From the NCBI GenBank assembly GCA_003216975.1, contig QCHY01000006.1, forward strand, positions 13,972 to 77,971: a stretch of 64,000 bases of DNA, read 5' to 3'. Source of the DNA: Prochlorococcus sp. AG-402-I20. GTDB taxonomy: Bacteria; Cyanobacteriota; Cyanobacteriia; PCC-6307; Cyanobiaceae. Below, piece by piece: positions 1,055 to 17,665 of the stretch (its first letter is position 1; every line of letters begins with the position of its first letter). Position numbers and translations under genes: made by a program. The notes beneath the pieces were generated by a model. That model worked only from the letters and a program-made list of their open reading frames with translations. It was not told where the DNA came from and ran no database searches.

Positions 1055-2314
1055 ATGTCAACAAGAACTTATTATGATCCTCTTCATCAGTCCATTACAT
1101 TAAATAGCTCAATTCCAGAAGAAAAAATGGTGATGGAATTAATAGATTCCTCACCATTTCAAAGATTAAGAAGAATCAAACAATTAGGTCCTGCTTACTT
1201 AACTTTTCATGGAGCAGAATCAAGCAGATTCACTCATTCCATTGGTGTATTTCATCTAGCAAGAAGAGCAATAAATCATTTATCTAGCTTTGATTCAGAA
1301 TTAAAAGAACACAAATTCATTCTCTACGGCGCCTCACTTTTACATGATTTAGGTCACGGGCCACTAAGTCATACAAGTGAGGAGATTTTCAAAATTAAAC
1401 ATGAAGAATGGACAGCCAAGTTAATAAATTCAAATCAAGAGATAACAGAGATACTTAACAAATATGGAGAGGGAAATGCTAAAGCAATATCAGATTTAAT
1501 TCAATCGAGGAAAGCAGAAAAGAAAGTAATAGTTTCGTTAATTAGTAGTCAGCTGGATTGTGATCGACTTGATTACTTAATAAGAGATAGTTATACAACT
1601 GGGGCAAGATATGGTCACCTAGATATAGATCGAATAATATCAGCAATGACAATTGCTCCAGATGGAGATTTAGCAATACACCCAAAAGGTCTAATGGCAG
1701 TTGAACATTATTTAGTAATCAGGAATCTTATGTATAGAAGCGTATACAATCATCGACTAAATGAAGTTTGCAATTGGTTATTAGAGCAAATTATAAAAAC
1801 AGCAAGAAAAATTGGACCAAAAAAATTATGGGCTGATAAAAACATGTCTGAATGGTTATGGAATCATGAAAAAATGGACGTAAAAAGTTTTTTGTCTAAT
1901 GATGATATAGTAACTGGATACCATATTCATAGATGGCAAGACTCTGGTTTTCATAATCTAAAAAATCTATGTAAACGTTTTATACAAAGAAATTTATTAA
2001 AAGCATTAAATATATCTTCCTTCTGCTTGGAAATGAGACTAGAAGCTCTTGCAAAAGCAAGGCTTCTTTCTGAAAAGAATGGCATCGAGCCAGATATATC
2101 ATGCGGTCTAAGAGAGCAAGTAGTTACAAGTTATCATCCTTATAAATATGGGCTTCGTTTATGGGATGGAGACAATCTTCAGGCTCTTGAGAAAGTCTCA
2201 CCATTAGTTGAGAGATTAATAGAGCCTAATCAATCTTCATGGTTGATTTACCCAAACGAAATAGAAAGTAAGTTAAAAATAGAGATTGAAAATCTAAAAA
2301 TGAAAAATAATTAA
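1055..2314 (+). CDS. HD-superfamily metal-dependent phosphohydrolase (dNTPase-like)
   Basis: FQRLRRIKQLG, SRFTHSIGV, LLHDLGHGPLSH, LDCDRLDYL motifs. Confidence 0.9.
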   Translation: MSTRTYYDPLHQSITLNSSIPEEKMVMELIDSSPFQRLRRIKQLGPAYLTFHGAESSRFTHSIGVFHLARRAINHLSSFDSELKEHKFILYGASLLHDLGHGPLSHTSEEIFKIKHEEWTAKLINSNQEITEILNKYGEGNAKAISDLIQSRKAEKKVIVSLISSQLDCDRLDYLIRDSYTTGARYGHLDIDRIISAMTIAPDGDLAIHPKGLMAVEHYLVIRNLMYRSVYNHRLNEVCNWLLEQIIKTARKIGPKKLWADKNMSEWLWNHEKMDVKSFLSNDDIVTGYHIHRWQDSGFHNLKNLCKRFIQRNLLKALNISSFCLEMRLEALAKARLLSEKNGIEPDISCGLREQVVTSYHPYKYGLRLWDGDNLQALEKVSPLVERLIEPNQSSWLIYPNEIESKLKIEIENLKMKNN

Positions 2315-2316
2315 AA

Positions 2317-2964
2317 ATGAATTCAAAACCTCAAAAAATTATTGTAAATATCCAAGATTGTAAATATCCAAGTTGGAAAGTATGCTTAAGAAATAAATTA
2401 AAATACCTGAAATCAAGCAATCTAGAAATCGATTGTAAAAATCTCGATCTTTCATGTACAGATTTATTGGAAGTTATTGCAATTTCAAATCAATCAAATT
2501 GTACAGTAATTAGTGTTTGTTCAACATCTTTAAAGACAACAGTAAGCGCTCAATCATTAGGTTATAAATCTCAATTTATTATTGAAAATCATTTAAATGA
2601 AACTTTAAAGATAAATGAAAAAAATATAACTATTTCAAAAACCAACTTTCATCAAGGAACTGTCAGGTCAGGAGAATATCTTGAAAGCTCTGGAGATTTA
2701 TTAATCCTAGGAGATGTTAATCCAGGGGCAAAAGTTAGTGCAGAGGGAAATATTATTATTTGGGGAAGACTTCTTGGAATTGCGCATGCAGGAAGTAAAG
2801 GCGACTCTAAATCAACCATATCGGCACTTCAACTTAGACCTGTTCAACTAAGAATCGCTTCAAGAGTTGCTAGAGGACCTAAGGAAAAGCCCCAACTTGG
2901 TTTTGCAGAGCAGGCAAGAATAGATTCTGAAGAAATTATAATTTGCCCATTAGAGACAACATAG
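2317..2964 (+). CDS. minC: Septum site-determining protein MinC
   Basis: C-terminal GTVRSGEYL...ILGDVNPGAKVSAEGNIIIWGRLLGIAHAG beta-helix; first gene of minCDE. Confidence 0.92.
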   Translation: MNSKPQKIIVNIQDCKYPSWKVCLRNKLKYLKSSNLEIDCKNLDLSCTDLLEVIAISNQSNCTVISVCSTSLKTTVSAQSLGYKSQFIIENHLNETLKINEKNITISKTNFHQGTVRSGEYLESSGDLLILGDVNPGAKVSAEGNIIIWGRLLGIAHAGSKGDSKSTISALQLRPVQLRIASRVARGPKEKPQLGFAEQARIDSEEIIICPLETT

Positions 2965-3130
2965 TTCGAAAAGTTAAATTAAGTAGGGGTTTTCAAATAA
3001 AAAGCAAGAAGAAATTACTACTTAAAACCTAAGAGATGTCTTCAAAAGCAAACCCAATGCAAACGATCTGACAATAAAGCTTTTTTCTTCATCAAAATCG
3101 AACTAAAGTTTGTCGAATCCAAGGAGGTCC

Positions 3131-14725: not shown

Positions 14726-14801
14726 GCCGGGATAGCTCAGTTGGTAGAGCAGGCGACTGAAAATCGCCGTGTCCCCAGTTCAAATCTGGGTCCTGGCACC
14801 A
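14726..14801 (+). tRNA. tRNA-Phe(GAA), CCA encoded
   Basis: GCCGGGA acceptor, TAGCTCAGTTGGTAGAGC, anticodon loop CTGAAAA, GTTCAAATC, ends TCCTGGCACCA. Confidence 0.97.
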
Positions 14802-14806
14802 TTATT

Positions 14807-14830
14807 AACCACCTTAACTGGTGGTTTTTT
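14807..14830 (+). terminator. Intrinsic terminator after tRNA-Phe
   Basis: AACCACC-TTAACT-GGTGGTT followed by a T-run. Confidence 0.75.
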
Positions 14831-14942
14831 AATGCCTTGAGTGATACTTAATACCCCCTTCAAGGCAGTAGTACCAATGGTTATAGCAATATAAGTAGAG
14901 GATAACTCCTAAAGAGTACAGGACAATCTGGAAGATCTTTAA

Positions 14943-14967
14943 TGGTATGGAAGTGGTATGGAAGTTT
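14943..14967 (+). repeat. Tandem TGGTATGGAAG x2 (left end of cassette)
   Basis: TGGTATGGAAG TGGTATGGAAG TTT; matches 17536-17560 at 24/25. Confidence 0.85.
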
Positions 14968-15023
14968 CCCTATCAGATTAATGAATTATTACTGCCACGA
15001 TGTTCAATGAATAATCAGAATAT

Positions 15024-17210
15024 TCAGGTATTCATTTTAGAAACCCAGAACTGATACATTCCTCTGAAGGTATGTGGATGTTTCTCTTCAAATTTTTGCC
15101 AATTTTGTAAGTTCGTTTGTTCTTTATCTTCTGGGAAATATTGCTTGTAGAGAGATTTAACTATTTTTGGAAGTAAGAATCCAAGAAACTCTAATTTATT
15201 AGATTTAAGAGTTTCTTGTAGTTGGTTAATTGTGAATCTATGTTCTTGTGGGTGAAAGCATAGATCACGGCAGGAAGAAAGTGTATAGAAATCACCACTG
15301 TTTAATAGAGAGTTTAGCTCTGGTATTTTTCCCGAGAATACAGTCTCTCTGAAATCACGAATGTTATCTTTGCTTGGTTGAAGTTTTTGACTGGCAATAT
15401 AATGCCTTGCTTTAATAATATGTTGTCTTGCTAGTTCGCTATATAAACCTAGATGAAGAAATCCATTAGGTTTTAAAATATTTAATAATGCTTTCAATCC
15501 TTTTAAAGGATTCTCCATATGGTGTAAAACACCACTAGATTCAATAATGTCAAATTGTTCTTCTAGTAATCTAACTTCTAAGATATCCATTTGAATTAGT
15601 TCAACATTATTAATCTCAAATTCATTTATCTTTCTTTGAGCATAAGCAAGACTAGATGAACTTAAGTCTATACCAATAATCTGACTATTCTTATAATTTT
15701 GTGTATATAAAATATGCTGACCTGTTCCACAACCAGCAACAAGAATTTTTAATTGCTTATCACCTAGAGTTTGACTTATATTATTTGGGTAGATTTCATT
15801 ATTAATTCCTTGCACAATAGATATCTTTTCTTTTTCTGAATGATTAGCATATCTCCATCTAGGATATGGATTTTCTTCATATTGAGATTTTACTTTTTTA
15901 GAAATATTGTTATTAATCAACCCTAGTTTTTTAATATTATGGGATAATTCAATTTCTTTTAGAGGTTCCTTTATTTGATAGTTTATTAGTTCTTTAAAAT
16001 TTTCATTAGAAGAATTAAAAGATTTTAAAGATGGTATTAGATCAAGAAGTTTATATAGTGGGAAATAACAAGATAAAATTGCAATATATGATTCATTGCA
16101 TTCCCCATCTGTACATTTCTTTATAATATTATCAATTGAAATATTTTCTTCTTCAGTAAATGAATAAACATATTCATTTAAGAAGCATTGCTCTCCTAAA
16201 GCAATAATAAAGTGTAATTCTGAGCGATTAATAATCTCTATATTGTAAGCGATACGAATGCATATATGCCTCCTTACGTTGGTTAATAGTATCTCTAATT
16301 TATGATCACAAAAGATAATTTTTTTAAGTGCATTAATTATAACTTTATCATTGATAAGCAATTCTATTTGTGAGAAGTTTGAATCAAGTTTCTCTAAATT
16401 ACTGATTATCTTATTTCTATATACAAAGTTAAATGCTCTCCTTAATTCTTTATGAGGGACATCATTTTTCTCTAGCAGAATATTTAATATGTTTTTCAAT
16501 TTTGAGTTGTTTAATTCAGCTAGATCCGAATATCTTAAAAAATAAGTGATTGCTTGGTAAACATTGGAATGTGTTGGATTGATCCGAATCACTTTCAAAT
16601 AAGCATCAAATGCTTCTTGTGATTTTCCAAGATCTATCAATATATTTCCAAGATTGTAATGAGCATCTGCGAAATCAGGTTTCAGTGCAATTGCTTTGCG
16701 AGTAGATACTTCTGCTTTTTTTAAATTCCCAATATCTCTCAATATATTTCCAAGATTGTAATGAGCATCTGCGTAATCAGGTTTCAATTCAATTGCTTTG
16801 CGAGTAGATACTTCTGCTTTTTTTAAATTCCCAATATCTCTCAATATATTTCCCAGGTTGTAATGAGCATTTGCGTAATCAGGTTTCAATTCAATTGCTT
16901 TGCGAGTAGATACTTCTGCTTCTTTTAAGTTGCCAACATCTTTTAATATGACTCCATAATTAGATAAAACTCTGTGATCATTGAAACCTTGCTTTATACA
17001 ATACTGATAATATTTGGTTGCTTCTGGAATATTTCCTTTTAGATGAAACTGAATTGCTTGATTGATTATTTGTTCTTTAGAAGGTTTAGAAGGAGTATTG
17101 GTAGTAATAGTTATGTTTCCTTTGATTTCTCCTAAAGCAAATGGCACTGGGAATGTTTTTAAATCAGTAATTTTCTTCTTTTTTTCTTCTTCTTGACCAT
17201 AACTATCCAT
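15024..17210 (-). CDS. TPR-repeat protein with C-terminal class I SAM-dependent methyltransferase domain
   Basis: 34-aa TPR units (AHYNLGNILRDIGNLKKAEVSTRKAIELKPDY); ILVAGCGTGQH, IDLS, FDIIESSGVLHH methyltransferase motifs. Confidence 0.88.
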   Translation of the reverse strand: MDSYGQEEEKKKKITDLKTFPVPFALGEIKGNITITTNTPSKPSKEQIINQAIQFHLKGNIPEATKYYQYCIKQGFNDHRVLSNYGVILKDVGNLKEAEVSTRKAIELKPDYANAHYNLGNILRDIGNLKKAEVSTRKAIELKPDYADAHYNLGNILRDIGNLKKAEVSTRKAIALKPDFADAHYNLGNILIDLGKSQEAFDAYLKVIRINPTHSNVYQAITYFLRYSDLAELNNSKLKNILNILLEKNDVPHKELRRAFNFVYRNKIISNLEKLDSNFSQIELLINDKVIINALKKIIFCDHKLEILLTNVRRHICIRIAYNIEIINRSELHFIIALGEQCFLNEYVYSFTEEENISIDNIIKKCTDGECNESYIAILSCYFPLYKLLDLIPSLKSFNSSNENFKELINYQIKEPLKEIELSHNIKKLGLINNNISKKVKSQYEENPYPRWRYANHSEKEKISIVQGINNEIYPNNISQTLGDKQLKILVAGCGTGQHILYTQNYKNSQIIGIDLSSSSLAYAQRKINEFEINNVELIQMDILEVRLLEEQFDIIESSGVLHHMENPLKGLKALLNILKPNGFLHLGLYSELARQHIIKARHYIASQKLQPSKDNIRDFRETVFSGKIPELNSLLNSGDFYTLSSCRDLCFHPQEHRFTINQLQETLKSNKLEFLGFLLPKIVKSLYKQYFPEDKEQTNLQNWQKFEEKHPHTFRGMYQFWVSKMNT
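16638..16920. repeat. 102-bp near-identical tandem repeat (about 2.8 units) encoding TPRs
   Basis: CAATATATTTCC recurs at 16638, 16740 and 16842 with almost identical intervening sequence. Confidence 0.92.
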
Positions 17211-17476
17211 CTTCTCTTATCTTTTCTCTCTTTTAGTTCTTCCGATTTTACTACTAAAGCAAAGCGGATACTTGAAATTGGTTGTTTCCCGAAGTTGCTT
17301 AAAGATCTATTGACCTGAACGCTTCTGCATAAATTCCAATGCAATTGATTTGACTGCTTGCTTCTCCTTGAATAATCCTCTTTGGCAAATCTTTTTCTCA
17401 ACATTACTTATGAATGATCAGGAATACGATCCACTTATCAACTCTTCTGGAACTTCTGAAGTGACTAAGTCCCCAG

Positions 17477-17560
17477 AACTTCCATACCAATGACTCATGA
17501 ATAAGAAACAAAAAACAACTCCTACAGAAATGTACTGGTATGGAAATGGTATGGAAGTTT
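17477..17560. repeat. Right-end copies of the TGGTATGGAAG motif (one inverted at 17477-17489, two direct at 17536-17557)
   Basis: AACTTCCATACCA (reverse complement TGGTATGGAAGTT) and TGGTATGGAAA TGGTATGGAAG TTT. Confidence 0.85.
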
Positions 17561-17636: not shown

Positions 17637-17665
17637 TGTCCCCAGTTCAAATTTGGGTCCTGGCA
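17637..17665 (+). repeat. attR-like duplicate of the tRNA-Phe 3' end
   Basis: TGTCCCCAGTTCAAATTTGGGTCCTGGCA vs TGTCCCCAGTTCAAATCTGGGTCCTGGCA (28/29 identical). Confidence 0.93.

Follow-up and report, generated by a model that had tools for sequence, protein, structure and literature searches.

Paired 11-base repeats on an integrase-less Prochlorococcus cassette as probable arm-type sites of a divergent tyrosine integrase family

The gain and loss of genes in the genomic islands of Prochlorococcus is only partly explained, and most island genes are located outside elements that carry an integrase. The question of how such genes could be moved is raised by a locus in a 64,000-nucleotide stretch of the genome of Prochlorococcus sp. 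AG-402-I20 (contig QCHY01000006.1, positions 13,972 to 77,971), referred to below as the window. An insert of 2.9 kb is bordered there by a tRNA-Phe gene on one side and by a copy of the 3' end of the gene, identical in 27 of 28 nucleotides, on the other. Short repeats of 11 bases are positioned inside both borders. Sequence comparisons make it likely that the repeats are arm-type binding sites of a heterobivalent, lambda-like tyrosine integrase, left on a cassette that has lost an integrase of its own.

The target of the integration is tRNA-Phe(GAA), identified by ARAGORN at positions 14726-14801 of the plus strand. The 28 nucleotides at its 3' end (14771-14798) form the core of the left attachment (att) site, attL. 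The attR core is a partial tRNA-Phe 3' end at 17638-17665, also on the plus strand, which differs from the attL core by a C to T substitution. The left arm, P', starts with an element-derived hairpin and T-run (14807-14832, plus strand) that resembles a terminator and takes the place of the native tRNA terminator. The tandem pair of the P' arm is formed by two exact plus-strand copies of TGGTATGGAAG (14943-14953 and 14954-14964) and begins 144 nt past the left core. In the P arm, at the opposite end of the insert, an exact TGGTATGGAAG unit is inverted (17479-17489, minus strand; it reads CTTCCATACCA on the plus strand) and is followed after 46 nt by the second tandem pair (17536-17557, plus strand). 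The first unit of the right pair, TGGTATGGAAA (17536-17546), ends in A and contains one mismatch, and the second (17547-17557) is again exact TGGTATGGAAG. The distance from the right pair to the 28-nt core is 80 nt, or 79 nt if a 34-nt repeat is considered. The original prediction, made from the window alone, described two tandem pairs and an inverted copy, and both the positions of these five copies and the match of 24 out of 25 nucleotides between the 25-mers 14943-14967 and 17536-17560 hold. The predicted periodicity of one helical turn corresponds to a unit period of exactly 11 bp. All copies are non-coding, apart from short mechanically called open reading frames (ORFs) that overlap them, and are flanked by the two cores, which places them inside the att repeats as proposed.

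Chance clustering of the motif is excluded, because the window contains nine matches with at most one mismatch compared to 1.04 expected, and nine were reached in none of 100 shuffles. Six exact copies are present in the whole 1.70-Mb genome, four of them inside the cassette, and the other two are scattered isolated singles. Comparisons covered 42 species-level genomes from the genus of the window genome, whose named members are Prochlorococcus, for example MIT 1012. The tandem 22-mer, with up to two mismatches allowed, was found in 16 of these genomes, and its reversed control in none. Integrase-bearing elements at the same tRNA are flanked by the same layout of pairs and inverted units.

The organization of the window cassette recurs in seven other genomes of the genus, in the order tRNA-Phe, pair, cargo, inverted unit, approximately 47 nt, pair, approximately 80 nt, and tRNA-Phe fragment. 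The cargo is the same in some of them and different in others. The P' pair is located approximately 105-145 nt past tRNA-Phe in loci L021, L034, L035, L036, L027, L030, and L038. The tRNA-Phe gene and the conserved right flank are 2999 nt apart in the window and 0.3-11 kb apart elsewhere, but only 96-125 nt apart in genomes G003, G007, G014, G030, and G037. These are empty attB sites, present in no fewer than five genomes of the genus, in which the end of the tRNA is joined directly to the right flank of the window. The tRNA-Phe site is therefore polymorphic for the presence of an insert within the genus. Genome G028 contains a remnant at tRNA-Phe with the unit GGTCGGTAAG. In four orthologous integrase-less cassettes, the units are near-invariant and the spacer between the pair and the core varies, which, given that these are four related sequences, weakly suggests continued constraint on the units. 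Short relics without recognizable arm pairs are present at tRNA-Phe in L152 (G019:C13) and L153 (G001:C2); they include the 3' end of a gene for a TPR-methyltransferase, the cargo of the window cassette, and look like decayed copies of this cassette.

Full elements of 5.6 and 6.9 kb are inserted at tRNA-Phe in two genomes, MIT 1012 (L026) and AG-402-I21 (L029). Both encode a small serine recombinase and a 223-245-residue protein, and L029 also contains a ParB-methylase fusion. The distal end of the elements is occupied by an inward-facing gene for a protein of 469 or 493 residues. The distal proteins have no match in Pfam, including the phage integrase family PF00589. Nevertheless, the distal protein is a tyrosine recombinase, because it matches the PHROGs integrase family phrog_1 (8.7e-10), has conserved R293, K324, R401, and Y438 at the places expected for a tyrosine recombinase, and has a predicted fold closest to the integrases (Int) of lambda and Tn1549. 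In a Foldseek search with its AlphaFold2 model (pLDDT 82.5), the best match in the PDB was full-length lambda Int (1z1b, E 6.9e-6), and the other top matches were Tn1549 Int, XerA/H, and Cre. Searches with an alignment of the integrases identified 17 loci in genomes and 80 in metagenomes, originating from Prochlorococcus, marine and freshwater Synechococcus, and Vulcanococcus; no relative was found among the viral contigs of IMG/VR. Two of the loci, L044 and L046, come from metagenome-assembled genomes (MAGs) labelled Andersenbacteria and Chitinophagaceae, respectively, and have integrases and arms typical of freshwater picocyanobacterial members; these contigs are probably mis-binned. The integrases of the family are about 460-490 residues long, and the elements are inserted at tRNA-Phe or tRNA-Cys(GCA).

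The integrase is the only protein present in every element. A PF00239 resolvase of 190-210 residues is encoded in L026, L029, L040, L136, L076, L073, and others, and its gene often adjoins the P' arm. The tRNA-Phe elements share a protein of 218-245 residues (L136 351-1007; L026 cassette 2278-3015; L029 cassette 2355-3026) with no match in Pfam or PHROGs, and a ParB-N/N6-methylase fusion of approximately 496 residues is also common in the elements. Either of the two proteins could serve the replication or partition of an excised circle.

The family extends the arm architecture well beyond the window. Among 84 picocyanobacterial genome and metagenome integrase loci with sufficient upstream sequence, 79 contain a pair with an exact period of 11 bp and an inverted unit upstream of the integrase gene, with the inverted unit 30-75 nt nearer to the gene than the pair. 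The same arrangement was found in 5 of 1680 shuffles and in none of 84 gene-internal segments. Counted from the integrase start codon, the pair typically occupies positions of about -75 to -98, and the inverted unit is closer, at about -5 to -29. In loci that include the tRNA end of the element, the unit recurs there as a pair and an inverted unit, which brings the number of sites in a complete element to six. On the P' arm, complete elements have their inner inverted unit approximately 37-58 nt past the pair, as seen in the attL of L026 and L029, in L047, L049, L052, L053, and L040, and in L067. The five sites of the original prediction are all present in the window, but they are not the full set. 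The window cassette lacks a proper inner inverted unit on the P' arm; only a candidate degenerate inverted unit, TTTCCCTATCA (14965-14975, minus strand), abuts the left pair with a match of 8 out of 11 positions. The abutting TTTCCCTATCA is kept in L021, L024, and L035, and its reverse complement, TGATAGGGAAA, resembles TGATAGGGAG, the unit of the family member L050. The claim that the cis machinery of the cassette is intact was thus overstated, as the sixth site is absent and the attR core carries a mismatch.

The units are uniform or nearly uniform within one element and differ between elements. Every unit of L029 is GGTATGTAA, and the window-type unit is GGTATGGAAG. The unit of L026 is GGTATGGCA, with two deviating units in its attL, the second unit of the pair (GGTATGGATG) and the inverted unit (GGTATGGATT), which read GGTATGGAT. 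In the family consensus Y-G-G-[T/A]-A-[G/T]-G-[G/T]-[G/A/C]-A-G, positions 3, 5, 7, and 10 are invariant or nearly so, position 11 is G in 88% of the units, and positions 4, 6, 8, and 9 vary. The integrases possess an extra N-terminal domain (N-domain) of approximately 110 residues, which is predicted to be formed of four strands and a long helix (pLDDT 89, pTM 0.79). In a test of 56 non-redundant elements, the distances between units correlate with the distances between N-domains when the rest of the protein, the C-domain, is controlled for (partial Mantel r 0.50, p 2e-4). In the converse test, units correlate less strongly with C-domains, given the N-domains (r 0.20). At position 6 of the unit, T occurs together with a C/W-R-W/F motif in the third strand of the N-domain, and G with Y/S-A-x-W/Y. 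Taken together, the layout, its presence in 79 of the 84 loci, and the co-variation with the N-domain provide strong comparative support for the predicted function of the repeats as the P and P' arm sites of a lambda-type tyrosine integrase.

The original prediction also held that excision would rebuild an attP composed of an inverted site, a pair, the core, and a pair. Such sites are found in circular-looking contigs of relatives. Contig L136 is 6696 nt long, has a 123-nt terminal overlap, and is probably a circle. Within approximately 400 bp it contains an inverted unit, a pair, the tRNA-Phe core, a pair, and an inverted unit, followed by the integrase gene. The same attP layout, including the hairpin after the core, is present in L076, which has a 22-nt overlap, and in L073, L078, L075, and L119. 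The sequence 'caccattattaagcacc..ggtgctttttt' that follows the core in the window is shared with the attP-form contigs L078, L073, and L075, and the attL of the window is 91-97% identical to them over 67-68 nt of this hairpin stretch. The circular-looking contigs are strong, if inconclusive, evidence of attP, as a tandem array could give the same picture. Both attP and the empty attB were seen in relatives.

An integrase that could read the window-type unit exists in other picocyanobacteria. In Synechococcus sp. AG-686-B21, exact copies of GGTATGGAAG form a pair and an inverted unit beside the gene of a 465-residue integrase, and the other arm adjoins tRNA-Phe on a second contig, so both ends of the element are recovered. 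The unit GGTATGGAAG is also positioned beside integrases on the marine contigs L072 and L078-L081, of which L078-L080 have a GC content of 36-38%, as is expected for Prochlorococcus. A scan of genome contigs for the exact 21-mer returned only five loci, one of them a chance match in a Lachnoclostridium MAG. The 42 genomes of the genus contain four full integrases of the family, none with the GGTATGGAAG unit. The window genome itself encodes only its core integrase and that of an element at tRNA-Cys(GCA), the single family member of this genome (C12:21950-32270; locus L040 4952-15270). It is a complete 10.2-kb element with borders formed by a 101-nt direct repeat (83% identical), a 465-residue integrase, and a resolvase. 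Its arms have the same architecture, but are built of GGAAGGGGAG units, reading GGAAGGGGA. A genome scan with Pfam PF00589 missed this integrase.

These observations can be combined into a model. The integrase family belongs to small integrative elements of approximately 5-10 kb in marine and freshwater picocyanobacteria, which insert at the 3' end of tRNA-Phe or, in other members, at tRNA-Cys. In a complete element there is a six-site attP composed of an inverted unit, ~47 nt, a pair, ~80 nt, the 28-nt core, ~105-165 nt, a pair, ~37-58 nt, and an inverted unit, and the integrase gene starts directly beside the first inverted unit. Integration separates the two arms, one to each end of the element, directly inside attL or attR. 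The N-domain of approximately 110 residues is proposed to bind the 11-bp units, with positions 4, 6, 8, and 9 of YGG[T/A]A[G/T]G[G/T][G/A/C]AG serving as an element-specific address, and the C-terminal domains would cut and rejoin the tRNA core. One arm overlaps the upstream region of the integrase gene, and the units therefore probably also mediate autorepression by the integrase, as described for KplE1 IntS, where arm sites that overlap the int promoter serve Int as operators (PMC2951348). The window cassette, which retains both cores, both pairs, one inverted unit, and thus five of the six sites, together with one cargo gene, is by its sequence a non-autonomous derivative of such an element. 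Its movement would depend on the arrival in the cell of an element with an integrase that reads GGTATGGAAG. Retained docking sites of this kind suggest how cassettes beside the tRNA-Phe of marine picocyanobacteria could still be moved.

Several results weigh against this interpretation. No integrase matching GGTATGGAAG is present in the genome of the window, the assembly of which is 92% complete, and with one of the six sites gone the remaining sites may be inert relics. The N-domain has no significant match in fold searches of the PDB (best E 2.5) and of BFVD (best E 0.22; an Mx8 integrase has E 0.39), and it matches none of the arm-binding families in Pfam. Homology of the N-domain to the arm-binding domains of lambda-type integrases is consequently not claimed here. 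The Mantel test leaves shared ancestry in, and the C-domain is also weakly correlated with the unit. Furthermore, the units overlap the upstream region of the integrase gene, and a purely regulatory role or the binding of a small protein such as an excisionase is possible.

The last point can be developed into an alternative in which the units are operators of a transcriptional regulator or an excisionase-like factor through which the integrase gene and the gene at the opposite element end are controlled, and the copies on the cassette are relics. The positions of the inverted unit, 5-29 nt, and of the pair, approximately 75-98 nt, upstream of the integrase start in most loci are suitable for operators. 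Lambda Xis binds tandem head-to-tail sites, and small unannotated ORFs, such as the 82-residue ORF after the integrase in L136, are present in the elements. However, the same triple of units recurs at the tRNA-proximal end, where its orientation to the adjacent gene is reversed, the integrase is the sole protein common to all elements, and the sequence of the unit follows the integrase N-domain. The arm sites of KplE1 double as Int operators (PMC2951348), and the upstream position is therefore no argument against arm sites. We consider the operator alternative unlikely.

A function of the units as res-like sites of the small serine recombinase, a resolvase or invertase, is much less probable still. 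The PF00239 resolvase is present in many elements and its gene is often next to the P' arm, but the resolvase does not co-vary with the unit and was rejected as its reader. The resolvases of L049 and L050 are 76% identical, but the respective units are GGTATGTAAG and TGATAGGGAG; the resolvase of L052 is 63% identical to that of L026, but its unit is quite different; and many loci, among them long ones such as L042, L044, L054, and L055, show no resolvase. Moreover, resolvase subsites are inverted repeats bound by dimers and not 11-bp head-to-tail pairs. The interpretation of the units as iterons of a replication origin of the excised circle, to which the circular-looking contigs, the conserved 218-245-residue protein, and the ParB-methylase fusion might point, is highly improbable, as each arm contains just two head-to-tail units and one inverted unit, the units without exception flank the recombination core at constant distances, integration splits them to two ends, and neither Pfam nor PHROGs relates the 218-245-residue protein to a replication initiator.

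The arm-site interpretation leads to a more speculative scenario, which we regard as possible but doubtful, in which the integrase-less cassettes are maintained non-autonomous cargo modules. Each of them would have an arm address matched to one type of N-domain and would be movable by a passing element with the matching integrase. Because the GGTATGGAAG address is shared with Synechococcus, cargo could pass between Prochlorococcus and Synechococcus at the tRNA-Phe located ahead of light-harvesting genes.

The sole cargo gene of the window cassette (15024-17210, minus strand) encodes a 728-residue protein that combines TPR repeats with a methyltransferase domain of the class I SAM type (Pfam TPR_1, 7e-35, and Methyltransf_11, 9e-18), and orthologues of the gene are present in L024, L035, and L036. 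The ORF list contains no recombinase gene in the cassette. A search of all six reading frames of the cassette with the N-domain profile (hmmsearch) returned only fragments with E > 2, and an integrase remnant is not claimed. A promoter scan of the cassette found 13 candidates compared to 15.1 expected, that is, no enrichment. Genes for a phycobilisome (PBS) linker, CpeS, CpeT, and a HEAT lyase are located at 21.8-25.1 kb of the window.

A second type of cassette, which does not involve a tRNA, occurs in L022 (G008:C4), L025 (5370-6800; G015:C11), and L031 (8600-10350; G027:C3). Its borders are formed by the approximately 47-nt repeat GAGTGGTGGACTGGGTTTTACTGCCCTAAACTATTCCCACTCAATAG, and pairs of GGTGTGGAAG are positioned a few nucleotides away. 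By eye, its site seems to be beside a GMP-synthase-like gene.

The units resemble the arm-type sites of lambda (P1, P2, and P'1-P'3), Tn916/Tn1549, L5, and KplE1 IntS. The arm sites of these systems are likewise repeats of approximately 10-11 bp that differ from the core and occur in both arms. As in the picocyanobacterial elements, lambda-type arm sites include adjacent head-to-tail copies one helical turn apart as well as oppositely oriented copies, and they belong to the element part of attL and attR and come together in attP. In KplE1, one arm overlaps the upstream region of int (PMC2951348), as it does here. The nearest catalytic and core-binding folds to the predicted model of the family integrase are those of lambda Int and Tn1549 Int. 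In contrast to the lambda-type systems, the attP described here is nearly symmetrical and has six sites, the integrase escapes detection by PF00589 and has an N-domain without a detectable match to an arm-binding fold, and no excisionase or sites of bending proteins were identified in these elements.

Cis-mobilisable elements (CIMEs) are flanked by att sites and lack recombination genes; they occur beside ICESt1 and ICESt3 of Streptococcus thermophilus. The window cassette is similarly bounded by attL and attR, has recombination sites and no integrase, and by analogy is presumably movable only in trans. Unlike in CIMEs, one of the six arm sites is absent from the window cassette, and no conjugative partner is involved.

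The tycheposons of Prochlorococcus use Pro-tgg, Ser-tga, Ala-ggc, Thr-ggt, Arg-tct, and Met-cat tRNAs and tmRNA, and their integrases reportedly form a cluster together with the core integrase of Prochlorococcus; the terms 'direct repeat', 'arm', and 'attP' are absent from the text of the preprint (Hackl et al., bioRxiv 10.1101/2020.12.28.424599). Like tycheposons, the elements described here integrate at the 3' ends of tRNAs and leave partial copies of the tRNA behind, have an inward-facing tyrosine recombinase at one of their ends, and contain cargo modules. They also share with tycheposons the small serine recombinases, which are among the hallmark genes, and remnants that build up islands. 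They differ in that tRNA-Phe(GAA) and tRNA-Cys(GCA) are outside the seven tRNAs of tycheposons, and in that the integrase is distal and not tRNA-proximal. Furthermore, the family profile has no significant similarity to the core integrase of the window genome, L039 (hhalign E 0.22, with only 35 N-terminal columns aligned). The non-significant alignment hints that the N-domain is possibly common to the lineage of core and tycheposon integrases. The aligned stretch of the core integrase (L039 1438-2601, contig C8 of the same genome) reads 'LDINQDLQSKGINLRIERRGKVLNIRGSLPDK' compared to 'LNVxxDLGxKGxxPxNLxIxK...WLP' in the family.

In marine Synechococcus, tycheposon-like insertions located between tRNA-Phe(GAA) and the rod region of the phycobilisome contain TPR genes, tnpR-type resolvases, and a distal tyrosine recombinase by a tRNA-Phe remnant (Grebert et al. 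2022, PMC8995045). The same study states that Prochlorococcus tycheposons were never observed at tRNA-Phe, and does not mention repeats or arm sites (0 occurrences of 'repeat'). The window has its insert at the same tRNA and in the same position ahead of pigment genes. The combination of a distal recombinase and a tRNA-Phe remnant is found in L026, L029, and L066, whereas the window has the remnant and no recombinase, and one of the elements with the exact motif belongs to a Synechococcus single-cell genome. In contrast to the Synechococcus insertions, the site is used here in a genus of low-light Prochlorococcus, both by full elements and by cassettes without an integrase.

The kind of system is thus already known, and what is new is the six-site attP with its specificity code, the divergent integrase family, and the use of the system in low-light Prochlorococcus. 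For one hot spot, the results provide a testable cis/trans scheme with a defined six-site attP and a readable code of arm-unit specificity, which includes an integrase family overlooked by standard Pfam screens and stripped cassettes that retain most of the docking sites. The 'tycheposon-like' elements at tRNA-Phe of Synechococcus are thereby extended to low-light Prochlorococcus, with the same arm address found in both genera.

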